24,000 bases of DNA from Anthocerotibacter panamensis C109 (lineage in GTDB: Bacteria > Cyanobacteriota > Cyanobacteriia > Gloeobacterales > Anthocerotibacteraceae): the NCBI RefSeq assembly GCF_018389385.1, contig NZ_CP062698.1:3294667-3318666 (forward strand), written 5' to 3'. A model generated the notes under the pieces. It saw nothing but the letters and a program-made list of their open reading frames with translations. It did no database searches and had not been told where the DNA came from. The translations under genes and the position numbers were made by a program. Shown piece after piece: positions 208 through 24,000 of this stretch (positions are counted from its first letter, which is position 1; each line of letters begins with the position of its first letter).

Positions 208-303
208 GTGTTTGCGCTACTGGCCCGCTGGTTCCATAAATTTGTCTGTTTGCTGCTTCTGTTTATTTTTACGGGCAACCCCCTGACGGCAGTAGTCCAA
301 GCG
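208..303 (+). other. predicted Sec-type signal peptide of the Rhs protein
   Basis: N-terminus MFALLARWFHKFVCLLLLFIFTGNPLTAVVQA|AV has a basic n-region, a hydrophobic core and a VQA-A cleavage-like site. No PAAR, VgrG, LXG or TPS-type N-terminal domain recognised. Confidence 0.55.
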
Positions 304-3300
304 GCGGTCTATGTCCCGAGTGGTTTCTACTACTACGACACTCTAGACTTGGCGCTGGGCGGGCAGTATCCCCTCTTTGTATCCCGACATTACCAGAGTC
401 AATCAGCTAGCGGTGCTTCAGTTGCGGGGTTGGATGGTCCTTTTGGACCAGGGACGCACATGGGGCTCTACAGCCTCAGAGCAGAGGTGGTCAGCACTTT
501 CCGGGTGCGCCTATTCATGCCCACGGGCGACGAGCAAGCCTTTATCAGAGTCGGCGATGGCACCTATCGCAATGAGCGCTTGTCTGACCCCATCCAGGGG
601 ATTGTCCAAGTCAATGGCACGACCATCACGCTGACGATGGAGCGTGGGACCGTTCTGAGCTTCACCGCCTCTGGGAGTACGCGACAGCTCAACTCCATCC
701 AGGACCGCCTCGGCAAAGTTATCCGGTTTGAGTATGACCCTGGGGAGAGCCGTATTCGCAAGGTCATTGATCCTTTTGGGCGCTACATCCAATTCGAGTA
801 TCAGGCGGGGACCAACCGGGTGAGTGTGGCCCAACTCTACGCCGGGACCGATGGCTTCAATGACTGGTTTGTAAGCTACGAGTACGACGGGTCGGGGAAT
901 CTGGTCCGTTTTCATAACGTGATGGATGGTCAGTTTGCCTCCCGTGCCGATGGCAGTCAGACTGCGACCAATGGCGTGACGCAATATAGCTACAGCGGCA
1001 ATGCCCTCACGACCATCACCGGACCGAGGGGCTATGTGGTCCTGACCAATAGCTATGACGGCAATGGACGGATCATTCAGCAGCGCTTGCCGGGGGTCAA
1101 TAGCAGCACCAGTGCTGACGATGTGCTCACCACCTACAGCTATGGGACCAACAGTGCAACGCTGAGTAACCGAGACCAAGCAGGGGCATCGCGCTTTCCA
1201 ACAACGTTGACTTGGGACGGGGCAACGCAAAATATCACCCAAGCCAGGTCTGAGGTGGATGGAAGTACCAGCAACGCCACCTATGACCCCACCTACAACC
1301 TGATTGCCACCTACAAGAATGCGCTCAACCAGCAGACGACCTGGAATTACCAGTTAGACAGCAGTGGGACCTTCACTCGCCTATCTCGCATACAACAAAG
1401 TGACAGCAGTCAGACGAATTTTAGCTTCAATGGCTCCTTTGGGCGCATCAGTAGTGTGACCGATGAGCGCAATCAGACCACGAGCTTTACCTACCATGCG
1501 GCGGACCAGTCCTTTGGGCTCAATCAGGTCTCCTCGCCCCTGCCGCAGAACGATTTCTATCCCCAGTACAACAGCTACGGACAGCCCTTGCGCTACCAAG
1601 ACGGGCAGGGGCGGCAGGTTACCTACACCTATAACGACTATGTACCCTCGGGGACTGACCCCAACCCCAACACCCGCTTTCAGGATCTAGCCTCTATCAC
1701 GGACGGGTCGGGCGTGCAGGTGCGCCTGAGCTATGATGCGCTGTCGCGGCTGACTAGTTTGACCGATGCTACGGGCAATACTTGGACCTACAGCTATGAC
1801 CGGCTCGGGCGGGTGCTCCAGATTATTGCTCCCGGCAACCGCACCACCCGCTACACCTATGATGACCAGTCGAATCTGACGAGCCTCACGGCTCCCAATG
1901 GCGTCAAGACCACCTATACCTATGATGCTTTGGACCGGGTGGCAAGCCGCACCCAGAATGGGCGCACGGAGTCCTATGGGTACAACGAACTGGGGCAACT
2001 GACCAGCAGCACCGACCCGAAGGGGCAGGTGACGAGCTACACCTTTGACAGTAAGGGGCGTACCGCGACGGTCACTTTCAACAACCAATCCACCCTGAGC
2101 TACAGCTACAACACGCTGGACCAAGTCACCCAGATAACGGATAGCTCCGACCCTGCCGGGAGCAAGAATATTGCCTTTAGCTACAGCACAGCCAGTAATC
2201 AAATCAACCGGCTAGCGCAGGTGACGACCGCTCCAGGCACCACGAGTCAGGATAAGTTGAACTACGCTTACGATGCGGCAGGGAATCTGACCAAAGTCAC
2301 CCGCGAGGCTCCACCGCCCCAGGAGCCCTATGGGTTTATGGACTATGGCAACTGTCAAAATGCTGGAGGATGGGCCTATGACCCGGATAACCCTAGCGCA
2401 ATTCTGGGCATTAACTTTTATCTGGATGGCCCGAGAGGGTCCGGGACCTATTTCGCATCAACGCAAACGGGGCTGTACCGCTCGGACCTCCAAGCCAATT
2501 GGGGATTTAACTTCACCTACCCCACCCCATTCCAGGACAACAGAGCACACACTGTCTACGCCTATGCCGTCAAAAATGGGATAGAAACTCTCCTGAACAC
2601 GGACCCTCAAACTACCCCTGTTTGTGCAGCACCAGCCCCCCCACCCACTACCCTTAACTGCGCCAACTACCCACTCAGCTTGAGTATTGACGAGGGTAAT
2701 TACTTCCCCGTTGGCAACGCTACTTTCCGGTGGACAGCCCCCGGTACTCCTAATGGTTACTACATTCGGGTTCAGAATGCAGCTACCGGTGCTATCCGCT
2801 ATGACAGCTCGCTGGTGAGCTTCACGTCCACGATATTGAGTCTGTCGCTGGGGAATTATCTGCTGAGCGGTTCTGTCTGGCTCAATGCTCCCAATGTCAT
2901 AGGCGCAACTCCAGATGCCGGAGGCTCTCGGTGTCCTAGCACCACGCCTATTGCCTTCACTGTCTACCGGGAGAATCGCCCCCCCCTGCAAAGTCCACAA
3001 CCCTTAGTTCTCCAGAATAAGGCTGAGGCATCTCTGGCTCCTGTCGTGTCCCCAGCGCCCCAACCGGATGTACCCCAGGGACCACCCGTGCTGACGGATT
3101 TGCTGCGCTACAGCTACAAGAATGACAACAGTCTGGCGAGCGCCACCTTAGTAGGCAATGGCGATGGCGCGGACCTGACGGTGAGCTTCAACTATGACGC
3201 TTCCGGCTCGCTGACCAGTGTGAGCTACCCCAATGGCTTGACCGGCAACTACAGCTACACGCGCCCGAGCGGTTCTCCCAATGGCGATGTCCGGCAGGTG

Positions 3301-6300
3301 ACCTTTAGCGTCGGCAGTACCGGCTTGCGTCAGGTCACCTATAGCTATGACTACGATGCCAGCAGCACCACAGCGCGGGGATATCTGACCCAGCGCACGG
3401 AGAGTGGTCCCAATGTGCCAGCCATTGCCCAGGGTCAGCAGTTCAGCTACAACGCGGTCGGGGAGCTAACCAGCACGCAGACTACAGCGGGCAGCTACAC
3501 CAGTGCCTACGACCTAGACGGTAACCCCACCGCTATCACCAATGCTGGGGTGAATACGACCGCCACCTATGAAGCAGGTAGCAACCGGATGACCGGCTTT
3601 GGGGGTCGCACCATTCAGACGGATGCCAACGGTAATATCACTAACGATGGCATCAACCGCTATGAGTGGAATGCCCGTGATGAACTCATCACCATCCGCG
3701 ACCAGAGTAACAACATCAGGGCCACGTTTATCTATGACGCTCTGGGTCGCCGTATTCAGAAGACAGTCAATGGGATAACCACCCAGTTCACCTACAGTGG
3801 CAGTCAGGTCATTGAAGAAGTGACCAATGGGGTCAAGAAGCGCTACTTGGTCGGTTTAGGGCTTGATGCAGTCTATGCTAGCCGAACTAATGGCGCGGAT
3901 GAATATTTGCTCAGAGACGCCCTCAACGGTTCCATCATTGCTGTGGTTGCGGGGAGCAATTCTCCGTATGTGAAGACCGGCTATGGCTACACGCCCTTCG
4001 GTCAAGTTGTGACTTCGAGTATCAACACTCTTCTGAGTGCGGACATCCTGTGGCGCAACACTGCCAGCAATCAAGTTGCAGTTTGGTTGATGAATGGAGC
4101 TACCTTTTCTGCTTCCACCCCTATTTCATATTATGCAGACCAAAATTGGCAAGTAGCGGCGAGTGGAGACTTGAATCAGGATGGCAAAACCGACATTCTT
4201 TGGCGAAACCTAATCACCGGACAAAATGTGGCATGGCTACTTGATGGAACCGCCTATAAGGGCGACGGCCCCTTACCTACCGTTACAGACCTATCCTGGC
4301 ATATTGAAGGCATAGCAGACTTCAATGGCGACGGGAAAAACGACTTGCTGTGGCGCAATTACGCTTCAGGAGCAAACTCTATCTGGTTGATGGATGGGAC
4401 AACACCGATAAGCTATCCTTCCTTACCCTGGCCTGCGGTCGGGGATCTTAATTGGCACATTGAGGAAGCTGCCGACTTCACAGGGGATGGGCAGCCTGAT
4501 ATCCTGTGGCGCAACTACAGCACTGGGACAGTAAGCATTTGGGTGATGAATGGGTTGAACTTTGTCTACAGTATTGGTTTGCCTATTGCGCCTGATCCAG
4601 CTTGGAAAGTTGGTGGGGTTGGCGACTTCACCGGAGACGGGAAAACAGATATCCTTTGGCGCAACTATACCGGTGGCGATATCCATATTTGGGTGATGTC
4701 TGGAGTTACCTATACGACCAGCATCGTTCTGTCTCCAGTTACCGATTTGAATTGGCAAATTGCCAGTGCTGGCGACTTTGGAGGTCCTGGTAGTGTCCCA
4801 CCTAACAATCTAACCTTCACAGGGCGCGAAGACGACGGAACCGGCCTCATCTACTACCGCGCCCGCTACTATTCTCCCGACCTGCAACGCTTTATCGCAG
4901 AAGACCCCTTGGGTTTTGGTGGGGGCGACACCAATCTCTACCGCTATGTGGGTAATACCCCCCATCTCGCGGTAGACCCCAGTGGCCTCCAGCAAACAAA
5001 ATTAAGTCCTAAGCCTACCCCCAGAAAACAAAGCAATGTCACCACCCAAAGTAGCATTACCGCCCCTGGTCCGACGACCAACAATTCTTGTGGTGTGGTT
5101 GTGTTCGGACCCGTTACCGCCTCCGCCGCACAGGGTAACCAAGCCATTGGGACAGACCCCCCACCTTCGCCTAACGACACTATTTGCGGATTTAGTATAA
5201 CCATTGGGGTTGGCGGCGGCGGCGGTTTCGTCGTCGCACTACCTGGTCAGACCGTCGCTGCTGGGGGTTCAGTTTCCTACGTTCCCTTCACCTACTTTTG
5301 CAATGCTTCCACCCCCTGCCTGCCCGAGGCTTATATTCAACTGTCTCTGAGTGGACAGCCCGCCGATTGGGTGCAAAGTGCCACCGCGATACCCGGAAGG
5401 ACAACCTACAGCTTCAATCCGCCCAACGTGTTCCCCTCGCAGCAGCAGAGTAGCACCCTGACGATACGCACCGATGCCAGTACGCCGCCGAATACCTACA
5501 ATCTGACCATCGGTGGGACTACCATCAATGGACCGTCGGGGGTGCGCTCGATGTCCACCAGCCTGACGGTAACGCCCCCGACCACGCCCCCAAATACCCC
5601 AACCATCACCAGTGTGAGCAGTTTCAGTGCCCAAGTGGGACAGACAGTGACCCTCACAGGCAACAATCTAGGCAATGCCACGCAAGTGTGGTTTGGAGGA
5701 GTTCCAGCAGCGTTCACCCTCAATGTCTCGACCAATACAGTAACGGCGGCAGTGCCCCCGAATGCCCCCACGGCTCCAATCAGTGTGGTCACGGCGAGTG
5801 GGACAACGCAGACAGCGCAGAATTTTATGCCTACGAATGTTCCTACTGCTCCGAGGCGAGCACAGTTTGATTTGGGCATAGCGGCTCAACAGCTCCAGCA
5901 ATTCTACGAACGCAACCAAGATGCGCTTCAGGGCACGTTTAGCGCCTTGGGACAGGTTTTGAACGGTGGACTCACCGGAATCCTGGGTCTGCTTGAACTC
6001 AGTGGAGGTGCAGCACTACTGAACTACGCTAACCTTGAAGATGGCTCCCTGAGTGGTGCGGTAGCGGCAGCGGCAGCAGCAGACTTATTAGCGGTTGGTT
6101 CTACTACAGTCCTTGCTGGCAATGCTTTGGTAAATCAGGGCGTTAAAGGGTTGTTCGAGCAGCAGTATTATGCAGCTTCGCAAGGAGGTGGGCAGATATT
6201 TAATGTTAAGGGCATTGGAAACTTAGATCTCACATCTGGAGGTATTAATAACTTTATTTCTAAAAACGCTAATCGCTTTCAAAAAAAGTTAGGAGATAAG

Positions 6301-6537
6301 ATTGGTCAGGGGCGGTTACCCTTTGAGAAAGGGCGAGCAGGGTTTGATAAAGCCCTATCCATAATTGATCGAACCCTAAAGAATCCAACAGATGTCTTTG
6401 GTCCATTTACTTCAGCAAGAGGACAAAACACCGTGATCGATATATTTAGTAGAGAAACAGGTTTTACAGTCCGAATCCGAGCCGATGGGAGTTTTGACAC
6501 CCTAATTCCAGGGCCAACACGAGGAATAAGACCATGA
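208..6537 (+). CDS. Full-length Rhs/YD-repeat polymorphic toxin (main gene, 2109 aa) with signal peptide, accessory-domain insertions, Rhs core end and a 515-aa post-DPSGL extension ending in a small variable toxin domain
   Basis: Single 6.3-kb ORF. Many YD-repeat signatures (YEYDGSGNLV, YSYDRLGRV, YTYDALDRV, YGYNELGQL, YAYDAAGNL, FIYDALGRR). Rhs core-end block LTFTGREDDGTGLIYYRARYYSPDLQRFIAEDPLGFGGGDTNLYRYVGNTPHLAVDPSGL at 4810-4989. The stop overlaps the next ATG (ATGA at 6534-6537). Confidence 0.9.
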   Translation: MFALLARWFHKFVCLLLLFIFTGNPLTAVVQAAVYVPSGFYYYDTLDLALGGQYPLFVSRHYQSQSASGASVAGLDGPFGPGTHMGLYSLRAEVVSTFRVRLFMPTGDEQAFIRVGDGTYRNERLSDPIQGIVQVNGTTITLTMERGTVLSFTASGSTRQLNSIQDRLGKVIRFEYDPGESRIRKVIDPFGRYIQFEYQAGTNRVSVAQLYAGTDGFNDWFVSYEYDGSGNLVRFHNVMDGQFASRADGSQTATNGVTQYSYSGNALTTITGPRGYVVLTNSYDGNGRIIQQRLPGVNSSTSADDVLTTYSYGTNSATLSNRDQAGASRFPTTLTWDGATQNITQARSEVDGSTSNATYDPTYNLIATYKNALNQQTTWNYQLDSSGTFTRLSRIQQSDSSQTNFSFNGSFGRISSVTDERNQTTSFTYHAADQSFGLNQVSSPLPQNDFYPQYNSYGQPLRYQDGQGRQVTYTYNDYVPSGTDPNPNTRFQDLASITDGSGVQVRLSYDALSRLTSLTDATGNTWTYSYDRLGRVLQIIAPGNRTTRYTYDDQSNLTSLTAPNGVKTTYTYDALDRVASRTQNGRTESYGYNELGQLTSSTDPKGQVTSYTFDSKGRTATVTFNNQSTLSYSYNTLDQVTQITDSSDPAGSKNIAFSYSTASNQINRLAQVTTAPGTTSQDKLNYAYDAAGNLTKVTREAPPPQEPYGFMDYGNCQNAGGWAYDPDNPSAILGINFYLDGPRGSGTYFASTQTGLYRSDLQANWGFNFTYPTPFQDNRAHTVYAYAVKNGIETLLNTDPQTTPVCAAPAPPPTTLNCANYPLSLSIDEGNYFPVGNATFRWTAPGTPNGYYIRVQNAATGAIRYDSSLVSFTSTILSLSLGNYLLSGSVWLNAPNVIGATPDAGGSRCPSTTPIAFTVYRENRPPLQSPQPLVLQNKAEASLAPVVSPAPQPDVPQGPPVLTDLLRYSYKNDNSLASATLVGNGDGADLTVSFNYDASGSLTSVSYPNGLTGNYSYTRPSGSPNGDVRQVTFSVGSTGLRQVTYSYDYDASSTTARGYLTQRTESGPNVPAIAQGQQFSYNAVGELTSTQTTAGSYTSAYDLDGNPTAITNAGVNTTATYEAGSNRMTGFGGRTIQTDANGNITNDGINRYEWNARDELITIRDQSNNIRATFIYDALGRRIQKTVNGITTQFTYSGSQVIEEVTNGVKKRYLVGLGLDAVYASRTNGADEYLLRDALNGSIIAVVAGSNSPYVKTGYGYTPFGQVVTSSINTLLSADILWRNTASNQVAVWLMNGATFSASTPISYYADQNWQVAASGDLNQDGKTDILWRNLITGQNVAWLLDGTAYKGDGPLPTVTDLSWHIEGIADFNGDGKNDLLWRNYASGANSIWLMDGTTPISYPSLPWPAVGDLNWHIEEAADFTGDGQPDILWRNYSTGTVSIWVMNGLNFVYSIGLPIAPDPAWKVGGVGDFTGDGKTDILWRNYTGGDIHIWVMSGVTYTTSIVLSPVTDLNWQIASAGDFGGPGSVPPNNLTFTGREDDGTGLIYYRARYYSPDLQRFIAEDPLGFGGGDTNLYRYVGNTPHLAVDPSGLQQTKLSPKPTPRKQSNVTTQSSITAPGPTTNNSCGVVVFGPVTASAAQGNQAIGTDPPPSPNDTICGFSITIGVGGGGGFVVALPGQTVAAGGSVSYVPFTYFCNASTPCLPEAYIQLSLSGQPADWVQSATAIPGRTTYSFNPPNVFPSQQQSSTLTIRTDASTPPNTYNLTIGGTTINGPSGVRSMSTSLTVTPPTTPPNTPTITSVSSFSAQVGQTVTLTGNNLGNATQVWFGGVPAAFTLNVSTNTVTAAVPPNAPTAPISVVTASGTTQTAQNFMPTNVPTAPRRAQFDLGIAAQQLQQFYERNQDALQGTFSALGQVLNGGLTGILGLLELSGGAALLNYANLEDGSLSGAVAAAAAADLLAVGSTTVLAGNALVNQGVKGLFEQQYYAASQGGGQIFNVKGIGNLDLTSGGINNFISKNANRFQKKLGDKIGQGRLPFEKGRAGFDKALSIIDRTLKNPTDVFGPFTSARGQNTVIDIFSRETGFTVRIRADGSFDTLIPGPTRGIRP
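2302..3090 (+). other. about 263-aa non-YD insertion in the Rhs shell region: GWAxDxD-type beta domain, Pro-rich linker, Ig/FN3-like domain, Pro-rich linker
   Basis: YD periodicity stops after YAYDAAGNLTKVTRE and resumes at LLRYSYKNDNSLASA. The insert contains YGFMDYGNCQNAGGWAYDPDNPSAILGINFYLDG...RSDLQANWGFNF...HTVYAYAV, then PVCAAPAPPPTT, then a beta-rich segment (NATFRWTAPGTPNGYYIRVQN...IAFTVY), then a P/Q-rich linker. Confidence 0.5.
4042..4809 (+). repeat. five tandem ~50-aa FG-GAP/VCBS-like repeats inserted between the last YD repeat and the Rhs core-end motif
   Basis: Repeating unit GDFxGDGKxDILWRNxxxGxxxxWxMxG. The DILWRN/DLLWRN codons recur at about 4042, 4195, 4345, 4498 and 4651 (period ~150 nt). 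Flanked by YGYTPFGQVV upstream and NNLTFTGREDDGTGL downstream. Confidence 0.75.
4810..4989 (+). other. Rhs core C-terminal block ending in DPSGL (expected autoproteolysis/demarcation motif)
   Basis: LTFTGREDDGTGLIYYRARYYSPDLQRFIAEDPLGFGGGDTNLYRYVGNTPHLAVDPSGL. DPSGL is encoded at 4975-4989. Full or partial copies recur at 10926-11063, 12634-12748, 15235-15416 and 19447-19570. Confidence 0.85.
5236..5577 (+). other. Ig-like beta-sandwich linker domain (linker type B)
   Basis: ALPGQTVAAGGSVSYVPFTYFC...SSTLTIRTDASTPPNTYNLTIGGTTINGPSGVRSMSTSLTVTP. The pattern resembles CARDB/DUF11-like Ig folds. Copies occur in the cassettes at 9210-9338 (partial), about 12980-13325 and about 19817-20158. Confidence 0.4.
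5599..5832 (+). repeat. IPT/TIG-like Ig domain, copy 1 of 7
   Basis: PTITSVSSFSAQVGQTVTLTGNNLGNATQVWFGGVPAAFTLNVSTNTVTAAVPPNAPTAPISVVTASGTTQTAQNFMP. The P-x-I-x-S-V-S...G-x-x-V-T-L-x-G-x-N-L...V-x-F-G-G layout is typical of IPT/TIG domains. Confidence 0.6.
5860..6174 (+). other. Gly/Ala-rich hydrophobic pre-toxin segment type D1, ending in LFEQQYYA
   Basis: AQFDLGIAAQQLQQFYERNQDALQGTFSALGQVLNGGLTGILGLLELSGGAALLNY...AAAAAADLLAVGSTTVLAGNALVNQGVKGLFEQQYYA. LFEQQYYA is encoded at 6151-6174. Paralogous copy at 18177-18491. Confidence 0.6.
6196..6534 (+). other. variable C-terminal toxin domain of the main Rhs (family not recognised)
   Basis: Similarity to the paralogous cassette at 18177-18512 ends right after EQQYYAASQGGGQ. 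The unique ~113-aa tail ends ...VIDIFSRETGFTVRIRADGSFDTLIPGPTRGIRP. Confidence 0.5.
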
Positions 6538-7271: not shown

Positions 7272-8524
7272 TCACACTATCCCTGCTGTTTTTAAGTAGA
7301 CGTACCGTTTCAAGTTATAGCTCAGATTGAGCAAGCCCACTTTCGCAGCGATCCGTATCTGCCCCACGCCACGCAAGAGCTTCCCACCCATCTCATTTAC
7401 AAAACGACCAAACACATGTTCTACCCGTGCTCGGATTCGTGACTTCTCCCGATTCTCACTTTTTTGAGCTTCTGTCAATTCCCGATTTCGATAGCCCCGT
7501 TCATGGATCTTGCTATGAAAACCCATTTTAGCTAGCGCCCATTCTGTATCTGCACTGCGATAAGCACTGTCCGCCCACACGCTATCGCCTTCATTTTCTG
7601 CATCCAGGATGGCCCCTAACATTTGGGAGTCATGCACGGCGGCATCAGTCACCGCATAAACTCGAATAAAGCCGTATTCTGCATCGATATTTACATGGTT
7701 CTTGTAGCCAAAGTGCGATTCATCATTTTTTTTGGTCCAGCGGGCATCCCAGGGTCGTTTCATTCTCCGCGTTAAAGACTCAAATTCAAGGATGAGGGAT
7801 GTACCCCCGGATAAATAGCACTGACATAAATGACACAGCTTATTGCACGGTAAGTCTTGAAAACCTTGCCTGAAGATAATCCTAGCCAATTGAACTGACA
7901 TTTTTTCAAAACCCTGTCACCGCTTCATTTGGACTGTTTTCTCATCTAAATGAGAATGAAAAGACCCTGGCGGGCATCCACATCTTTTTGTTCTTTTTTT
8001 GATTCAGACCAACCTTCTGGAACTTGTCCAGCCTTGATTTGCTCATTCTCTAAACGTTTATTATGTTGCTTGGGCACAGGGATAAAACTAGCATCCACAA
8101 TCTGTCCACTCTTGGCTTGGTAGCCTTCCTCTACCAGATAGCTTTCAAAGCGCAAGTACAACGCTTCTATCAAACCTAACTGGGTTAACTGTTCTCGGAA
8201 TAAACCAATCGTCGTAGCGTCCGGGATTTGATCTTCTAGACCCAAATGCAAAAACTTCATAAAGGACAGGCGATCATGAACTTGGTATTCCAACTCAGCA
8301 TCGCTAATGTTATAGAGGCGTTGCAGTATTAGCATTTTAAATTTTAAAATTACGTCGATAGGCTTACGACCTGCATTACTTTTCCTGTCTTGAGCATAAA
8401 CTTGCTCCAGGATCGGGCGAAAATCCGACCAGGGAATCAGGGTATCTAACCGAACTAAAAAGCTTTTTCGTTGTTGCAATTGCTGATGGCGTTGTTCCCA
8501 ATCCCAAAACCCTTGCTGTCCCAT
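7272..8524 (-). pseudogene. IS5-family DDE transposase, split into two ORFs by a nested MITE
   Basis: The N-terminal ORF (likely ATG at 8524) reads MGQQGFWDWEQRH...NAGRKPIDVILKFKMLILQ...KDVDAR. The C-terminal ORF reads ...DARWTKKNDESHFGYKNH...ADSAYRS...RARVEHVFGRF. Deleting 7750-7979 (230 bp) fuses both in frame (KDVDARWTKKND) into about 340 codons. Confidence 0.85.
7750..7969. mobile_element. 220-bp MITE-like element nested in the IS5 transposase gene
   Basis: 18-bp terminal inverted repeats: CAGGGTCGTTTCATTCTC (7750-7767) versus the reverse complement of 7952-7969, CAGGGTCTTTTCATTCTC (17/18). Perfect 10-bp direct duplication GCGGGCATCC at 7740-7749 and 7970-7979. No credible coding capacity. 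Confidence 0.75.
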
Positions 8525-8795
8525 AATCAATTCCTTGGTTTCTCCAATTTTCTCATTTAGCAGCTCGCTAGGCAATTAATCGAGGTGCCCTATACATACT
8601 GTACAGTAAATAAACTATATTATTTCTCCCTCGCTCTATTAGACATTAAGTATTTAACTCTAATATTGTAGGGAAAGGTGCGTTTGGGCTTCCATAAGGA
8701 ATTAGCAATGGGTAGCCAAGTTCAATTCTACTCTACATAACCTATCAAGACGAAATCAATTTCTAGAGGTAACTCGGGCCTCGCTTAATGCGTAT

Positions 8796-9209: not shown

Positions 9210-10241
9210 TGTAGCGCTCTGACGATTCGCACCGATGCCAGTACGCCTCCCAACATCTACAATCTGACGATTGGCGGGACTACGATTAATGGCCCGTCGG
9301 GGGTGCGCTCGATGTCCACCAGCCTGACGGTGACGCCCTCGACCACGCCACCAAATACCCCAACCATCACCAGTGTGAGCAGCTTTAATGCCCAAGTGGG
9401 ACAGACAGTGACCCTCACGGGCAACAATCTGGGCAATGCCACGCAAGTGTGGTTTGGAGGAGTTCCAGCAGCGTTCACCCTCAATGTCTCGACCAATACA
9501 GTAACGGCGGCAGTGCCCCCGAATGCCCCCACGGCTCCAATCAGTGTGGTCACCCCGAGTGGGACAACGCAGACAGCGCAGAATTTTGTGCCTGTGCAGG
9601 TGGCTGCGGCTACGGGGCAGGCACAGTTCAATTTGGGTATAGCGGCTCAACAGCAGGATGAGCAGTTTATCAACTTCTTAAGGCAACGCTCCGTTGAGTA
9701 TGATAATCGGGTAGCGGGGCCAGCAGATTTATTTGACATAAACTACTACCTCCTTTTGAATAGGTTAAGAACTGTTCGCTCTATGCTTACTGGTAACCTT
9801 AAGGGGAGCAATATTGCAGTTGCATCAGCAAGTTTTAACGATCGAGCGCCACGTTTCTACATTGCATTGAGTGGTCAAAAGGATCTATCTACAGACCAGC
9901 TTGGAAAATTAGATATTGGTCCTGAAGAGTATGCAGGACTTGCAAAAATTGCTATCCGATATTTTAATGGAGGAATGGTTCCCAGGATAAATAGTAAAAC
10001 AGGAGAATTTAGGTTAGGTGAAAATGGCTCCATATTAATTCGAGAATCACAGTATGACTCAGAGCAAAAAATCCTTGAACAAGTTAGGATAGAGCTTTTA
10101 GCTGATCCAGCCTTAACTGGAACGGTTCGTATCCTAAGTGAGTATAAGTATTGTCCTGGTTGTTTGCGGAGCATTTCTAAGTTTGAAAAGGATTTTCCGC
10201 TACGTGTTAATCTTAAAGTTTATGACGCGGTAGGAAGATAA
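9210..10241 (+). pseudogene. orphan Rhs C-terminal cassette 2, 5'-truncated inside the Ig-like linker; TIG domain plus deaminase-like toxin domain
   Basis: Homology to the main gene begins abruptly at about 9211 (SALTIRTDASTPPNIYNLTIGG, compare 5452 onward), directly after an in-frame TAA. TIG copy at 9360-9593. Diverges from the D1 segment after AQFNLGIAAQQ (about 9654). The tail contains FYIALSGQ...YDSEQKILEQV-(x)-YKYCPGCLRSISKF. Confidence 0.7.
9360..9593 (+). repeat. IPT/TIG-like domain, copy 2
   Basis: PTITSVSSFNAQVGQTVTLTGNNLGNATQVWFGGVPAAFTLNVSTNTVTAAVPPNAPTAPISVVTPSGTTQTAQNFVP. Near-identical DNA to 5599-5832. Confidence 0.6.
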
Positions 10242-19248: not shown

Positions 19249-19440
19249 TTAGGGAATCAAGGAAGGAACGGCCAAACCCTTATGCACGGTTGCTTGTAGC
19301 GCTTGACTGAAAAACGTCACCACCGACCGCCCCTGCCTGTAGCACGTCTGCACTACCCCGAGCAAAGCTGCGGTTTCTTTAAATCGCTCCATCGAGCGCG
19401 ACCCCCCACTGACCTTACGCTTGGTCACCGCTAAACGCAA
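19249..19440 (-). pseudogene. C-terminal fragment of an IS66-family-like transposase (IS remnant)
   Basis: LRLAVTKRKVSGGSRSMERFKETAALLGVVQTCYRQGRSVVTFF matches the conserved R-x-x-V-x-x-RK-x-SGG-x-RS...A-x-L-x-S/V-x-x-T-C tail remembered from IS66-type (ISBst12-like) transposases. The N-terminal ~90% is missing. The fragment ends at about 19446, exactly where Rhs homology of cassette 7 begins. Confidence 0.45.
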
Positions 19441-21094
19441 CGACCACTACTACAGCCCAGAACTCCAGCGCTTTATCGCAGAAGACCCCTTGGGTTTTGG
19501 TGGGGGCGACACCAATCTCTACCGCTATGTGGGTAATACCCCGCATCTCGCGGTAGACCCCAGTGGACTCCAGCAAACAAAATTAAGTCCTAAGCCTACC
19601 CCCAGAAAACAAAGCAATGTCACCACCCAAAGCAGCATTACCGCCCCTGGTCCGACGACCAACAATTCTTGTGGTGTGGTTGTGTTCGGACCCGTTACCG
19701 CCTCCGCCGCACAGGGTAACCAAGCCATTGGGACAGACCCCCCACCTTCGCCTAACGACACTATTTGCGGATTTAGTATAACCATTGGGGTTGGCGGCGG
19801 CGGCGGTTTCGTCGTCGCACTACCTGGTCAGACCGTCGCTGCTGGGGGTTCAGTTTCCTACGTTCCCTTCACCTACTTTTGCAATGCTTCCACCCCCTGC
19901 CTGCCCGAGGCTTATATTCAACTGTCTCTGAGTGGACAGCCCGCCGATTGGGTGCAAAGTGCCACCGCGATACCCGGAAGGACAACCTACAGTTTCAATC
20001 CACCCAATGTCTATCCTTCGCAGCAGCAGAGTAGCACCCTGACGATACGCACCGATGCCAGTACGCCGCCGAATACCTACAATCTGACCATCGGTGGGAC
20101 TACCATCAATGGACCGTCGGGGGTGCGCCCGATGCCCACCAGTCTGACGGTGACGCCCCCGACCACGCCCCCCAATACCCCAACCATCACCAGTGTGAGC
20201 AGTTTCAGTGCCCAAGTGGGTCAGACGGTGACCCTCACGGGCAACAATCTAGGCAATGCCACCCAAGTATGGTTTGGAGGAGTTCCAGCAGCATTCACCC
20301 TCAATGTCTCGACCAATCAAGTGACAGCAACAGTGCCCCCGAATGCCCCCACGGCTCCAATCAGTGTGGTCACGGCGAGTGGGACAACGCAGACAGCGCA
20401 GAATTTTGTGCCTGTGCAGGTGGCTACGGCCCTACGCCAAGCACAATCTGCTCTAGCGAATGTCGCTGACCAGCTCTTGCAGGGATTGACCAGCCGAGAT
20501 TTCCTGGAGAGTGTAGCTAATGGGGCAGATGCTACAGGGAATGCAGCAGGAGCCTTGGCACTTATTCTTGGCGCAGAAGGTACAGGTACAACACTCACGG
20601 GTGTTGGAGCGCTCATTGGGGTACCAAGCTTGGCTGGAGCAGTGGGTGCAGCCGGAGTATCTGTCATTGCTAAGGGGAGCGCAACTTTGATTCGAGGGTT
20701 GCTGGAGCAGCAGTTCTATGCGATAGAAGGCCCCTTGGAAAATGCTAACTTTGCGCAGAAGAGCATTAATAAGGGAGAATTATTTAGTGAGGAAGGACAA
20801 GCTATCTATAGCAAGTTAGCAGGCAGACCAATTAAAACAGTTAACGATCTTGTCGAGGCAATTAAAGGTGGGGGCATTAATCCTGCCGATATTAAAATTG
20901 ACTATATCATTCGCGAAGGAAATACCCTTTTATTGAACACTCGCTCTGTAGCAGCCCTTGAGCGTGCAGGGGTTCCCCGTAGCGCCTTCTCTGCTATAAA
21001 TAGAACTGGAGATCCTTTCTTTGAAAAGCTGCTTGATGCTCAATTGCGCCGCAATGGGCTGACAAGCCAAGGTACTCCAAAGCTGCTCAGGTAA
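19421..21094 (+). CDS. orphan Rhs C-terminal cassette 7 (5' end cut by the IS remnant): core end, Ig-like linker, TIG, D2 segment, ParB-like-looking toxin
   Basis: Rhs homology from YYSPELQRFIAEDPLGFGGGD (19447). DPSGL at 19556-19570. 19469-19992 is near-identical to 4888-5411. TIG at 20180-20413. LLEQQFYA at 20699-20722. The unique tail reads IEGPLENANFAQKSINKGELFSEEG...IKIDYIIREGNTLLLNTRSVAALERAGVPR... Confidence 0.8.
   Translation: MVTAKRNDHYYSPELQRFIAEDPLGFGGGDTNLYRYVGNTPHLAVDPSGLQQTKLSPKPTPRKQSNVTTQSSITAPGPTTNNSCGVVVFGPVTASAAQGNQAIGTDPPPSPNDTICGFSITIGVGGGGGFVVALPGQTVAAGGSVSYVPFTYFCNASTPCLPEAYIQLSLSGQPADWVQSATAIPGRTTYSFNPPNVYPSQQQSSTLTIRTDASTPPNTYNLTIGGTTINGPSGVRPMPTSLTVTPPTTPPNTPTITSVSSFSAQVGQTVTLTGNNLGNATQVWFGGVPAAFTLNVSTNQVTATVPPNAPTAPISVVTASGTTQTAQNFVPVQVATALRQAQSALANVADQLLQGLTSRDFLESVANGADATGNAAGALALILGAEGTGTTLTGVGALIGVPSLAGAVGAAGVSVIAKGSATLIRGLLEQQFYAIEGPLENANFAQKSINKGELFSEEGQAIYSKLAGRPIKTVNDLVEAIKGGGINPADIKIDYIIREGNTLLLNTRSVAALERAGVPRSAFSAINRTGDPFFEKLLDAQLRRNGLTSQGTPKLLR
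20180..20413 (+). repeat. IPT/TIG-like domain, copy 7
   Basis: PTITSVSSFSAQVGQTVTLTGNNLGNATQVWFGGVPAAFTLNVSTNQVTATVPPNAPTAPISVVTASGTTQTAQNFVP. Confidence 0.6.
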
Positions 21095-21100
21095 GCGCCC

Positions 21101-21481
21101 ATGGAAACACAGATAGTCTACACAATTCCCAATACAGCTCTCGATTGCTTAAATGCTCAATTTATATATGAGGAAACAGACTTGATCCTCAAGTTGGAGT
21201 ACGAAGATGAAGATGGTATGGTGCGGTCCTATCACATTCGGTTTATTCATGCGCAATTGTTTCGATTTGAAAATGAAATGCACTGTATTTCCATCACAGC
21301 AGGAGCCTATGATGGGGTAGTTGAATTAGTTGATTCGGCTTGGGCTATGGAGATCAATTCCTTTGAAAATGAATATAACCGTCACAGTCCCTGGAGTAAA
21401 AGACATTTTTGCATATATATCAGTAGCACAGGACAGCTAAATATCATTGCAGACAGTTTCACTGTTGAGGTTGTAAAATGA
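21101..21481 (+). CDS. putative immunity protein for cassette 7
   Basis: Starts 6 nt after the toxin stop. 126 aa, AT-rich. The pattern ...HIRFIHAQLFRFENE...VVELVDSAWAMEI...RHFCIYISSTGQLNIIADSFTV resembles common small Rhs/CDI immunity proteins. Confidence 0.6.
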   Translation: METQIVYTIPNTALDCLNAQFIYEETDLILKLEYEDEDGMVRSYHIRFIHAQLFRFENEMHCISITAGAYDGVVELVDSAWAMEINSFENEYNRHSPWSKRHFCIYISSTGQLNIIADSFTVEVVK

Positions 21482-22041
21482 CAGCAGAAGAAATAATTCA
21501 GTTAAGCAAGACTATCTCTCATGCTTTACGTCACGAACCTTGGCTCTACGAGTTAGAAATTGACAACGAAGGATGGGTACTAGTCGAGACGTTACTCAGT
21601 TCTTTGCGTGCAGAGAGAACTGAATGGTCATCTCTGGGTGTAGCTGACTTAGAAAAGTTATTAACATTCTTTGACAAAAAACGGTTTGAGCTAAAGAATG
21701 AGAAAATTCGTGCTCTTTATGGTCATTCTATCCCCAAGAAACTACTGAAGCAGCCTGCCCTACCACCAATAACTTTGTATCATGGAACAGCGGTCGAGTC
21801 AGCGGCATCAATAAAAATTTATGGTTTACGGCCCATGGGCCGTCAGTACGTACATATGTCAGTGGAGGTAGAAACAGCGAGAGAAGTTGGTAGGCGAAAA
21901 TCCAAGTCGTCAATTGTTCTAACGATCTTGGCACAAAATGCATACAACAATGGTTTATCATTCTATCCGGCTGGGGAATTCGTCTGGCTAGCTGACTACG
22001 TGCTATCAAACTACATTCAGTTTACTGGGCACCTTGATTAA
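21478..22041 (+). CDS. kptA: RNA 2'-phosphotransferase (KptA/Tpt1 family); extreme C-terminus replaced by a MITE end
   Basis: LSKTISHALRHEPWLYELEIDNEGWVLVETLL, IRALYGHSIP, LYHGTAVESAASIKIYGLRPMGRQYVHMS and VWLADYV match the Tpt1/KptA layout (SKxLSxxLRH, GW, xGHS, YHGT, GLxxMxRxHVHLS). ATGA overlap with the preceding immunity gene. The last codons GHLD-stop are encoded by the MITE terminus (22027 onward). Confidence 0.8.
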   Translation: MTAEEIIQLSKTISHALRHEPWLYELEIDNEGWVLVETLLSSLRAERTEWSSLGVADLEKLLTFFDKKRFELKNEKIRALYGHSIPKKLLKQPALPPITLYHGTAVESAASIKIYGLRPMGRQYVHMSVEVETAREVGRRKSKSSIVLTILAQNAYNNGLSFYPAGEFVWLADYVLSNYIQFTGHLD

Positions 22042-22125
22042 TCCAAGCTTGTTGATAATCAGCTATGACAAAGCAGGGGTTTCAGGCTTTGCTTATTACG
22101 AAAAAGGTAATTAATCGAGGTGCCC
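22027..22125. mobile_element. 99-bp MITE/IS-derived element carrying the termini of the IS5-family element
   Basis: Ends are GGGCACCTTGATTAAT (22027-22042) and the reverse complement of 22109-22125, GGGCACCTCGATTAATT. Both match the 8574-8590 end of the IS at 7143-8590. No transposase and no flanking direct duplication (left flank ...TTTACT, right flank CGAGAA...). Confidence 0.65.
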
Positions 22126-22127
22126 CG

Positions 22128-22588
22128 AGAAGGATGGCTCCTGGTTCGCAGTTGGGCAGCTCGCTCCTAGATCAAAAAAGGCGACGGGGTACAGCCTGGA
22201 GGTCGAGGATGACCATACATATTTTGTTGGAGATTCTGGCGCGTGGGTGCATAATGAGTGTCTTGCTGCAAAGGGGGCAAGTGAGCTTTCCTTCGGTCGT
22301 AAGTTGGACTTCCTTTTCAACAAGGGAATTGACCAATCCAACGCCTACAACGCTGCGCGCGCCGCAGGTAATGCTGAACGAATCGGTATTGCCGATACAG
22401 CAGCGAATCGCGCCGAAGTTGCGAGGCTATTCAATCAGGCCTATCGAGATCCTTCTTCTATTGTTGAGCCGGGGAAGGTTCTCGGCAGCAACCTCCGAGA
22501 GTTCTTCCTTCCCGGCGTTACCGGGACTGGCTCAAAGATCCAGTTCGTTGAGAGGGGTGGACAGGTGATCACCATCATTGCCAAGTAA
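22128..22588 (+). pseudogene. orphan cassette of a second toxin type: C-terminal fragment of a Hint domain plus ~105-aa toxin domain
   Basis: Immediately after the MITE, KDGSWFAVGQLAPRSKKATGYSLEVEDDHTYFVGDSGAWVHNECLAAKG is paralogous to 23529-23674. The unique tail reads ASELSFGRKLDFLFNKGIDQSNAYNAARAAGNAERIGIADTAANRAEV...GSKIQFVERGGQVITIIAK. Confidence 0.7.
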
Positions 22589-22598
22589 GAAGATTGAT

Positions 22599-23081
22599 AT
22601 GGAATTTATCTCAGTGTCCTGGACATCTGTCGAGTCAAAGAATGCCTTGAGCAACTTTTTAGCCAAAGAAGGTGCCACGAGCGAACTGGCGACAGCAGAT
22701 CCAAATACATGGGGCTTCTTCCCGCTGCCGAATGGTAAGAAGCTTGTGGTTGGCTATGCGAATTTGGGCTTGACGCCAGTGGCTACCGTGGTGAACGGCC
22801 ACTTGCTCATCGGTATCAATGAAATCCTTGCTGGCTTTGATCTGAACACCCTACAGAGAACGTTCATATATCGCATGCCATCCGTCTTTCACGAATTCGT
22901 ATCGCTCAAGGATCCGGTCATCGTTCGCGACGAAGTGGGGTTCATTTGCATTTCAGCTACAGGAGTGGAGAGATGGGCGCTCTTGACGAACGGGCCAATC
23001 AATCAGTTCACAATCGAAGGTGCGTTCATCCGTGGAGTGACCATTGACGATGAGCCGTTCAAGTTCGCCATTCCTTCATAA
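22599..23081 (+). CDS. putative immunity protein for the Hint-type orphan toxin
   Basis: ATG at 22599, 10 nt after the toxin stop, is preferred over the TTG at 22578. 160 aa. Unlike the Rhs-array immunity genes, it is not AT-rich. Confidence 0.5.
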   Translation: MEFISVSWTSVESKNALSNFLAKEGATSELATADPNTWGFFPLPNGKKLVVGYANLGLTPVATVVNGHLLIGINEILAGFDLNTLQRTFIYRMPSVFHEFVSLKDPVIVRDEVGFICISATGVERWALLTNGPINQFTIEGAFIRGVTIDDEPFKFAIPS

Positions 23082-24000
23082 TTCTTTGCTGCAAAGGGGG
23101 TAGCAGCCGATGCCCAGTTCGCGCAGAAGACCTAAGCTGCGGAGTACGGTTAGTCTCACGCTTGGGACGGGGCGGGCGCTCTGTCCGTCGCTTTGAGGCG
23201 AGTGTTCAGGAGGTGCGCACAGTCGCCAATGGTCTGGGTTGCTCGTTCGTGGCAGGTACTCCAGTTCTGGCTGAGGGTGGACAGCAGCCCATCGAGAAGC
23301 TCAAGCCGGATGATAAAGTCCTGGCAAGAGATGAAGTGACAGGTGCACAGAACTATCAACGGGTCCTCCAAACCTTTGCCACGCCCAATGACCCGCTCTA
23401 TGACCTGGAACTAGTCAGCGCAACCGGGAAGCGAGAAGTACTCGGAGTAACGGGCAATCATCCCTTCTGGGTCAAGGACAAGGGCTGGACAGAGACCGAC
23501 CTACTCAAGCCGGGGATGCAAGTCGCGGGCAAAGATGGCTCCTGGCTGATGGTTGGGAAGTTCGTGCCTAGAGCGGAACGGGCGACGGGGTACAACCTGG
23601 AGGTTGAGGATGATCACACGTACTTTGTGGGGGATTCCGGGGCGTGGGTACATAATGAATGTCTTGCCGCAAAGACAGCAGAGACGGTTGCGGCTGATGC
23701 AGCGGCGGCAGGAGGTAGAGGGCCAAGCTTTATTGCGGCTGCGGACGGTAGCGTCTTTCCAGTTCCGAGAGGAGCAACAGGGCCACTCCCGACACGAGCT
23801 CCTGGAATGCAGTTTACCGGCGGCTCTGGCGGATACGGCCTTGACCCGCGAGTAACTGGTGTTCGTTTCATGGACGCCAACGCAAACCAAGGAGCGCGAG
23901 CGGTTTACATGAATCAAGCCGGGCAGACGGTGAATCCGTTCACCGGTCGTACTGTGCCATACAGCGATCCAACCGCGCACTTCTACTTCAACCCGAACCC
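23054..24000 (+). CDS. Hint-domain polymorphic toxin fragment (no start identified; open at the 3' window edge), missed by the ORF track
   Basis: Frame is open from 23054 to 24000. Complete mini-Hint at 23240-23656, then LAAKTAETVAADAAAAGGRGPSFIAAADGSVFPVPRG...GGYGLDPRVTGVRFMDANANQGARAVYMNQAGQTVNPFTGRTVPYSDPTAHFYFNPN, continuing beyond the window. Confidence 0.75.
23083..23133 (+). other. relic of a third Hint/toxin junction (FAAKGVAADAQFAQKT-stop)
   Basis: TTTGCTGCAAAGGGGG at 23085-23100 repeats CTTGCTGCAAAGGGGG at 22262-22277. The encoded AAKGVAADA resembles AAKTAETVAADA at 23666 onward. It is followed by a stop after 17 codons. Confidence 0.4.
23240..23656 (+). other. mini-Hint (bacterial intein-like / pre-toxin HINT) domain, 139 aa
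   Basis: N-terminal CSFVAGTPVLAEGGQQPIEKLKPDDKVLARDE and C-terminal GYNLEVEDDHTYFVGDSGAWVHN are the canonical Hint block A and block F/G signatures (Cys1 ... HTYFV ... VHN). Confidence 0.8.

Follow-up and report, generated by a model that had tools for sequence, protein, structure and literature searches.

The stretch analysed here, 24,000 nucleotides (nt) of Anthocerotibacter panamensis C109 (contig NZ_CP062698.1, positions 3,294,667 to 3,318,666; the window in what follows), carries an array of Rhs toxin cassettes, and in one of them the toxin tip and its small downstream immunity gene are followed by a gene for KptA/Tpt1, the NAD+-dependent RNA 2'-phosphotransferase. We find that a toxin-immunity cassette of wide distribution has KptA as its conserved third gene, and that this separate gene encodes an enzyme, not a binder, whose catalytic residues are kept. 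The explanation that we favour, to which as a whole we give a probability of about one half, is that the three genes at 20723-22041 form one mobile unit that joins a toxin tip and its binding-type immunity protein to a damage-reversing enzyme, where the toxin would phosphorylate the 2'-hydroxyl of RNA, the immunity protein would bind the toxin and KptA would reverse the lesion. What carries it is the anatomy of the locus, the family and catalytic residues of KptA, the fold class of the toxin and the conserved linkage of the three genes, and from these we infer the kinase activity of the toxin, its RNA target and the protection by KptA. The central features are as follows, with protein lengths in amino acids (aa).

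20723..21091, + strand: C-terminal toxin domain, 123 aa, with a probable ParB/sulfiredoxin-like fold (homologues, alignment, AlphaFold (AF2) model, fold matches)
21101..21481, + strand: immunity-type gene cognate to the toxin, 126 aa (homologues directly follow the toxin in related loci)
21478..22041, + strand: predicted KptA/Tpt1 RNA 2'-phosphotransferase, 187 aa (PF01885, alignment to 6E3A, catalytic tetrad)
21478..21481, + strand: ATGA start/stop overlap of the immunity gene and kptA (ATG at 21478-21480 over TGA at 21479-21481)

The ATGA overlap between kptA and the stop of the immunity gene had been pointed out in the initial annotation and is confirmed in the sequence, with a GAGG lying 7 nt upstream of the kptA ATG. 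The companion statement, that the same coupling joins toxins and immunity genes throughout the array, stands only in part: 4-base start/stop overlaps do occur at three other toxin/immunity pairs of the window (6534/6537, 14269/14272 and 16587/16590), but in the cassette itself the toxin and immunity gene are 6 nt apart and do not overlap. The gene is also, as described, the last one before the seam formed by a miniature inverted-repeat transposable element (MITE), since a 99-nt MITE-like element at 22027-22125 covers the KptA stop codon.

Related loci were sought with a scan keyed on toxin peptides alone (a 10-row alignment), which gave 25 loci in the genome collection; a scan of the metagenome collection gave 80 more. 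In the genome loci the immunity and KptA neighbours were called with hidden Markov models built for this analysis, and the metagenome counts given here refer to the 59 loci whose sequence downstream of the toxin reaches at least 1 kb, or to the 38 clusters obtained by dereplication at 90% toxin identity. The genome loci come from Clostridia, Negativicutes, Paenibacillus, Planctomycetes, Proteobacteria and Acidobacteria. The toxin is directly followed by an immunity homologue in 23 of these 25 loci, and the immunity homologue in turn by KptA in 21, while 58 of the 59 metagenome loci have the immunity gene, 56 have KptA, and KptA is present in 35 of the 38 clusters (28 on the same strand and 7 convergent). 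The co-travel of kptA with both homologues, proposed as a check when the locus was first read, is thus borne out in both collections. Junctions between the immunity gene and KptA in related loci are mostly overlaps of 4 to about 20 nt, with a gap of a few bases in a few loci; in convergent arrangements from different taxa (L026, L034 and L036; e.g. L026:6342-7252) the 3' ends of the two genes overlap by about 80 nt. In L032 and L034, which have a truncated toxin, KptA and the immunity gene are still kept together, and on two short metagenome contigs, L123 (270-1437) and L124 (15-861), KptA comes directly after the toxin with gaps of about 20-30 nt, an immunity-like fragment being found beyond KptA on the opposite strand of L123. 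Because toxin identities among the linked loci are 41-66%, these loci are not one recently spread clone.

The layout is that of a polymorphic toxin, with a variable tip behind a conserved Rhs end (DPxGL, or VENN in CdiA) and a small gene directly downstream, and the tip of the window type is also found on full Rhs proteins and on CdiA with PT-VENN. The toxin, immunity gene and KptA of the window have a common nearest relative in a 3.8-kb metagenome contig (L013; 59, 54 and 58% identity, respectively). Here a CdiA-type protein with hemagglutinin repeats, DUF637, PT-VENN and a tip 59% identical to the window toxin is followed by the one close relative of the immunity protein (54%) and then by KptA. 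As this CdiA cassette matches the Rhs cassette of the window, the three-gene unit sits on two unrelated delivery systems. The order of toxin, immunity homologue and then KptA is also seen in L046.

The 187-aa protein matches the PTS_2-RNA profile (PF01885) end to end, at E 1.8e-34 and 119.8 bits (cut-off 26) over profile positions 3-176 of 177, which settles the family assignment made from the initial reading. It scores under the NCBIfam equivalog cut-offs (159 versus 231 bits), and with the whole PF01885 profile matched it is therefore a divergent but complete KptA. Residues 7-182 align with Tpt1 of Clostridium thermocellum (CthTpt1; PDB 6E3A; E 1.7e-52, 181 bits), and the tetrad R18, H19, R69 and R122 equals R18, H19, R68 and R121 of CthTpt1 by this alignment and the numbering of PMC6333775. 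Lys66 and Tyr80 of CthTpt1 have equivalents in K67 and Y81, the junction-binding residues are conserved, and the N-terminal lobe is the RNA-binding winged helix. Among the aligned toxin-linked KptAs the catalytic Arg-His-Arg-Arg tetrad is kept in 21 of 22. RNA 2'-phosphate transfer to NAD+ is the one well-established catalytic activity of KptA (PMC6333775, PMC6573784), and CthTpt1 acts on internal as well as terminal 2'-phosphates (PMC6573784). With CthTpt1 as its closest assayed relative, the window KptA is predicted from its sequence to remove RNA 2'-phosphates using NAD+.

The likeness to CthTpt1 (6E3A; PMC6333775) thus comprises a full-length alignment, an intact tetrad and the Lys66/Tyr80 equivalents, and among the linked KptAs it reaches about 80% identity: the toxin-linked KptA of L016 (6769-7305) is about 80% identical to this crystallised and assayed enzyme. 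The two differ in their setting. CthTpt1 (identical to P0292; L047:3477-4025) is solitary on the one contig found, beside ISL3 transposase fragments and with no toxin or immunity remnant next to it on that contig, whereas the window KptA is embedded in a toxin-immunity cassette.

We next consider whether KptA might serve the toxin, either by aiding its loading or activity in the producer or as a second toxic enzyme that might, for instance, ADP-ribosylate 5'-phosphate ends. Tpt1 enzymes can cap 5'-phosphate RNA or DNA ends with ADP-ribose (PMC6182162), 'KptA/Tpt1-like toxins' have been proposed (PMC11833690), and a 2015 genome paper on Listeria monocytogenes ST121, which noted a KptA upstream of an RHS gene in a strain-specific insertion, read this KptA as a possible RNA-cleaving toxin (PMC4412001). 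However, the linked KptAs are stand-alone proteins of about 180 aa, and none of the 22 aligned copies has a delivery, PAAR, LXG or pre-toxin domain. KptA comes after the immunity gene in nearly all loci (L123 and L124 excepted) and has no immunity gene of its own, and it persists with the immunity gene at the truncated toxins of L032 and L034 and in toxin-less immunity-like pairs (L041, described below). The auxiliary toxin that had been among the options of the initial annotation is on these grounds disfavoured, and we consider a role of this kind decidedly improbable.

In the complete 4.19-Mb genome the window KptA is the sole PF01885 gene, and KptA was found in none of the three same-family genomes searched and was not found in nine of the ten same-order genomes. 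Ten class relatives do have KptAs, but these are 35-39% identical to the window KptA (one of them, a short fragment, 41%), and a maximum-likelihood tree separates them from the window KptA at its deepest split (100/100 support). The GC content is 40-44% in the toxin tip, the immunity gene and KptA versus 55-60% in the conserved Rhs core part. From the sole copy, the missing counterparts in the searched relatives, the deep clade split and the GC content, KptA is foreign to its host lineage. The linked KptA is also the only one in four of five other carrier genomes checked, and in the class of one carrier (G046) KptA occurs in that carrier genome only, of 73 genomes.

The window KptA and most linked KptAs, among them the same-strand ones, belong to the CthTpt1-like clade, while the convergent ones (L026, L029, L034, L036 and a Verminephrobacter remnant) group with the ordinary cyanobacterial KptAs in the other deep clade. 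Given two deep clades and two orientations, KptA was recruited to one toxin-immunity family at least twice, and unless the pairing were under selection such repeated joining would be difficult to account for. Pairwise distances of toxin and KptA correlate weakly (Spearman 0.32), and this correlation is not used as evidence.

These results bear directly on the possibility that kptA is a housekeeping gene hitch-hiking on the cassette without any functional tie to it. KptA genes do occur away from toxins, and the window copy is found at the cassette edge, adjoining a mobile repeat. Nevertheless the linkage persists over different phyla and delivery systems, in two KptA clades and in several gene orders, and the junctions of KptA with the immunity gene are translationally coupled. 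The initial annotation had considered that kptA might occupy the same position in relatives lacking the cassette, or fail to co-occur with this toxin family elsewhere; the search of three same-family genomes turned up no copy, and the co-occurrence is strong. Because KptA co-travels with the toxin and immunity homologues, hitch-hiking is effectively excluded, and we give it hardly any weight.

Turning to the toxin tip, neither Pfam nor NCBIfam has a family for it or for the immunity protein, a PDB sequence search with the tip returned nothing significant (the best being shikimate kinase, E 0.6), and an Atlas feature search gave unnamed clusters only. The tip nevertheless has at least 883 representative homologues at E ≤0.001, and among the 150 best matches listed it is almost always C-terminal, in proteins of up to 2867 aa. 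Its alignment shows invariant Q12, F21, G25, N72-T73-R74 and Q107, with S22 (≥90%) and N111 nearly invariant. The AF2 model has a confidence score (pLDDT) of 95, and when it was compared with 48,161 representative PDB chains the nine best matches all came from the ParB/sulfiredoxin superfamily (Z 6.2 to 3.8, the next being 2.5; 59-95 aligned residues), namely plant and human sulfiredoxin, Atu1540, KorB, PadC, SerK, SbnI, Spo0J and pNOB8 ParB. Three of these, sulfiredoxin and the serine kinases SerK and SbnI, are ATP-dependent phosphotransferases. The top rows of a Foldseek search agree with this superfamily at weak E-values of 0.1-1. With moderate confidence, then, the modelled tip can be assigned the ParB/sulfiredoxin (ParB/Srx) fold. 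Members of this superfamily bind nucleoside triphosphates (NTPs), and true phosphotransferases are among them. N72-T73-R74 of the toxin is placed at a strand-to-helix junction (E67-70, H73-81) where ParB has GERR, and on this model the tip is predicted to bind an NTP, putatively through N72-T73-R74 at the site of the box II arginine.

Toxin tips of a ParB-type fold have been described before: ToxB, Tox-ParB and Tox-ParBL1 are likewise C-terminal tips of CdiA or Rhs toxins. In ToxB the box II arginine is required for toxicity, and this ParB-fold CdiA toxin was shown to bind ATP and to hydrolyse it, no acceptor having been identified (bioRxiv 10.64898/2026.05.05.722872). ToxB was recognised through PF02195 and is rare (52 species), in contrast to the window family with its lack of a PF02195 match and its far larger set of representative homologues; the two are distinct but may share a fold. 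The Tox-ParBL1 signature '[ST] ... [NT][RT][RT]' (PMC3482391) fits S22 and N72-T73-R74 of the window toxin, the comparison being with the signature as printed. Zhang et al. 2012, who describe Tox-ParB and Tox-ParBL1, never mention KptA (PMC3482391), and a third gene has not been reported for any of the three toxins.

In the mechanism that we propose, the toxin tip would bind a nucleoside triphosphate and transfer a phosphate to the 2'-hydroxyl of an RNA, most plausibly tRNA or another translation RNA, and the resulting 2'-phosphate lesion would block the function of that RNA. The 126-aa immunity protein would neutralise the toxin through binding, and KptA would use NAD+ to clear lesions already made, something a binding immunity protein cannot do, and so would act as a repair-type second immunity factor. 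We know of no other bacterial enzyme that removes an RNA 2'-phosphate. Phosphorylation of internal 2'-hydroxyls by a kinase has been raised by Banerjee et al. as a possible origin of bacterial Tpt1 substrates (PMC6333775). Among the options left side by side in the initial annotation, repair-type second immunity fits best, the phosphotransferase-like ParB/sulfiredoxin fold modelled for the toxin giving it a chemical rationale. A bolder proposal is that the tips of this widespread toxin family are RNA 2'-O-kinases, the first known enzymes to install RNA 2'-phosphates de novo as a weapon, with KptA/Tpt1 as the dedicated lesion-directed antidote; we put this forward tentatively, and would sooner bet against it than for it.

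The content of the host genome is also informative as to the kind of lesion. RtcB is present there only as two short, stop-interrupted fragments (G000:C1:1122831-1123195), and neither PF09414 (RNA ligase) nor PF13563 (2H family) has a match. As no ligation pathway is evident in the genome, KptA probably acts alone on an RNA lesion that involves no cut, and the same finding counts against a cut-and-reseal scheme. In such a scheme the toxin would be an RNase or phosphodiesterase leaving 2',3'-cyclic, 2'- or 3'-phosphate ends, and KptA would strip the terminal phosphates for resealing or extension. Enzymes of the CthTpt1 type, the clade to which the window KptA and most linked copies belong, do take off terminal 2'- and 3'-phosphates in vitro, but on such ends CthTpt1 works stoichiometrically and is far weaker than in its catalytic turnover of an internal 2'-phosphate (PMC6573784). 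Nuclease activity was thought conceivable for ParB-fold toxins by Zhang et al. 2012 (PMC3482391), whereas the ParB/Srx relatives from our fold search are NTP binders and kinases and not RNases. Furthermore, no ligase or 2H phosphoesterase lies beside KptA in the loci examined. We regard the healing of cut ends as unlikely.

Much the same standing is given to a lesion on a small molecule, whereby the toxin would phosphorylate the 2'-hydroxyl of a nucleotide cofactor (e.g. NAD+ to NADP+, or another adenosine nucleotide) and KptA would strip this phosphate. The known ParB/Srx kinases target small molecules or proteins, ToxB is an ATP-consuming toxin without a known acceptor, and Tpt1 enzymes move a 2'-phosphate from NADP(H) to NAD+ (PMC10622864). 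Yet by the reaction scheme one NAD+ would be spent in each KptA turnover, so that the NAD+ pool could not be restored, and NADP+ is a normal metabolite. The RNA-binding winged helix of the N-terminal lobe and the conserved junction-binding residues of the window KptA likewise speak for an RNA substrate, and we think a small-molecule lesion improbable.

Several observations weigh against an RNA-phosphorylating toxin whose lesions are cleared by KptA. The fold matches of the toxin are moderate (Z at most 6.2), 38 members of its family gave no match to PF02195 (ParB_N) or any other Pfam family at E up to 10, and a comparison of the family with 14 ParB_N domains by hhalign was not significant (E 0.27), although the sole alignment that it returned, at that non-significant E-value, places LNTR on GERR and QLxRN on ENLQRE. 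The kinase activity and target of the family are proposed from the modelled fold and the linkage, and to our knowledge no ParB/Srx member phosphorylates RNA. ToxB, the one characterised ParB-fold toxin, causes nucleoid compaction, with no RNA link or KptA reported (bioRxiv 10.64898/2026.05.05.722872). KptA is not obligatory in the cassette: three metagenome clusters (L074, L096 and L105) have both the toxin and the immunity gene intact but no KptA, and four genome loci lack it, with toxin matches that are partial (L033, L037, L038) or only distantly related (L035, L039). Many KptAs, such as those of the class relatives, L043 and CthTpt1, have no toxin neighbour, and hence the module cannot explain every bacterial KptA. 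Lastly, the window toxin is an orphan tip without an Rhs shell and therefore may not be deployed at present; the cassette may now serve mainly in immunity and repair.

In four of five checked genomes whose locus lacks KptA there is none anywhere in the genome. The fifth, Verminephrobacter, has a KptA convergent to an immunity-gene fragment cut by an ISL3 transposase (L045:4897-6863), and a separate locus of this organism (L039) has a degenerate toxin and an immunity gene without KptA. A 674-aa frame in Verminephrobacter was considered as a possible KptA fusion and was rejected as a spurious extension, because no domain is present in its upstream 480 aa and the genome has a high GC content.

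KptA is also found beside proteins outside the toxin and immunity families described here, with close KptA relatives in Pseudomonas and Ralstonia adjoining other small proteins. In Pseudomonas sp. CR3202 (L041:1901-4561), two tandem, near-identical pairs of a 154-aa protein and KptA, joined by 4-nt overlaps, come after an unrelated toxin-like gene and its small partner, and the 154-aa protein is unrelated to the immunity family. A Ralstonia Rhs island (L042:2111-4537) carries a 491-aa protein, a 138-aa protein and then KptA. The first of these gives a weak match to the toxin profile in its C-terminal core (E 1e-4), with DNRR at the position of the motif, which hints that KptA is tied to a wider set of ParB-like toxins. 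Comparisons by hhalign were not significant for the immunity family with the proteins next to KptA in Pseudomonas and Ralstonia, nor for the toxin family against the KptA-neighbour protein of Paludibacterium. Judged by sequence, the KptA partners in these three are thus assigned to other families.

The immunity protein was modelled with confidence (pLDDT 91). The structures that it matches best, a chain from the PT7-PIM7 toxin-immunity complex (Z 7.1; 8owu chain E, for which toxin chain and immunity chain were not distinguished) and a Neisseria protein of unknown function (Z 6.6), are both clear of the rest, and its structural neighbour in the Atlas is YxiG-like. Complex prediction for the toxin tip and the immunity protein gave a median score of 0.31 (mark 0.32), which has no bearing on binding either way.

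To the extent of the literature searched, a module joining KptA/Tpt1 with polymorphic toxins, Rhs, contact-dependent inhibition (CDI) or immunity genes is undescribed, the single Listeria remark being the only related item; that paper gives no immunity gene, toxin family or repair role and does not generalise (PMC4412001). Reviews of KptA contexts name Thg1 and NAD-metabolism neighbours, not toxins. Within the reach of these searches, the earlier impression that no enzymatic reversal was on record for Rhs cassettes stands, although a conceptual precedent appeared in September 2026 with the YwqJ/YwqK/EndoV operon of Bacillus subtilis, by its authors' account the first toxin-immunity operon with a separate repair gene (bioRxiv 10.64898/2026.09.29.755374, PMC13648612). 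There too a polymorphic toxin and a binding immunity protein are accompanied by a third-gene enzyme that acts on the lesion and not on the toxin. YwqJ, however, acts as a cytidine deaminase on single-stranded DNA, its lesion being uracil in DNA, and EndoV is an endonuclease that starts repair, whereas KptA, as an NAD+-dependent RNA 2'-phosphotransferase, would reverse the lesion directly; the window module further differs in the ParB/Srx-like fold of its modelled toxin and in Rhs or CdiA delivery. KptA is not mentioned in that work (PMC13648612).

Antidotes that reverse the covalent modification made by a toxin reportedly include the ADP-ribosylhydrolase immunity protein Tri1, DarG and the small alarmone hydrolase antitoxins of toxSAS, and toxSAS toxins are said to pyrophosphorylate tRNA, i.e. 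to make a phosphoryl-type tRNA modification. In these systems the reversing activity reportedly resides within the immunity or antitoxin protein and is a hydrolysis, whereas in the window it would belong to a separate gene beside a conventional immunity gene and would be an NAD+-dependent phosphate transfer.

The remaining features of the cassette and its surroundings in the window are these.

19421..21094, + strand: orphan Rhs C-terminal cassette open reading frame (ORF), 557 aa (Rhs core tail with the DPxGL region, TIG domain, linker to EQQFYA, toxin domain)
19441..20544, + strand: stretch with 88-98% identity to 4860-6017, in the 3' part of the full-length rhs gene (direct repeat families D1-D8)
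208..6537, + strand: full-length Rhs protein of 2109 aa that heads the array (RHS_repeat, FG-GAP, DUF6531 and TIG domains)
22027..22125, no strand assigned: MITE-like element, 99 nt, with 16-nt terminal inverted repeats (inverted repeat I1), which closes the cassette

Within the 557-aa orphan ORF the tail of the Rhs core (TIGR03696, Rhs_assc_core) occupies residues 10-50 and TIG_SUH residues 254-318. An orphan tip that shares its 5' part with a full-length rhs gene is the usual layout for tip-swapping by recombination. The repeat at 19441-20544 is likely a recombination substrate for moving the toxin tip onto the main Rhs protein, and orphan tips could in this way recombine onto the full-length protein (208-6537) as a delivery vehicle. 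The left arm of the MITE-like element encodes the last kptA codons and the stop, and four further copies or part-copies of the element are present in the genome at 77-94% identity. Beyond this element the array type shifts to two cassettes with PT-HINT starts (22130-24000), in which the stretch 22130-22273 is repeated at 23531-23674 with 81% identity; one of these has a 113-aa tip (22247-22588) overlapping a 167-aa partner (22578-23081). Elsewhere in the window, an IS5-family transposase in two ORFs (7946-8575 and 7272-7901, - strand) immediately follows the main rhs gene with its immunity gene, and another orphan cassette (9303-10241) has a BURPS668_1122-type deaminase toxin domain behind a TIG domain.

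In fungi, Tpt1 functions in tRNA splicing. Its role in bacteria has been a longstanding conundrum, the source of RNA 2'-phosphate being unknown in most carriers (PMC6333775, PMC6573784). The link with a toxin suggests a reason why some bacteria keep KptA, and as the toxin is conserved in this link and modelled with a kinase-type fold, the riddle becomes testable with two purified proteins. If toxins of this family are indeed RNA 2'-O-kinases, bacterial Tpt1 would gain a physiological substrate, and its patchy horizontal scatter would be explained in part of the bacteria. RNA 2'-phosphorylation would be a possible new toxin chemistry, and it offers a working hypothesis for a family that has no Pfam entry and hundreds of representative homologues. 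KptA would also be a second kind of repair gene in toxin-immunity loci and the first involving RNA, which suggests that repair genes directed at lesions form a layer of interbacterial defence that recurs, one that may guard against non-cognate toxins as well.

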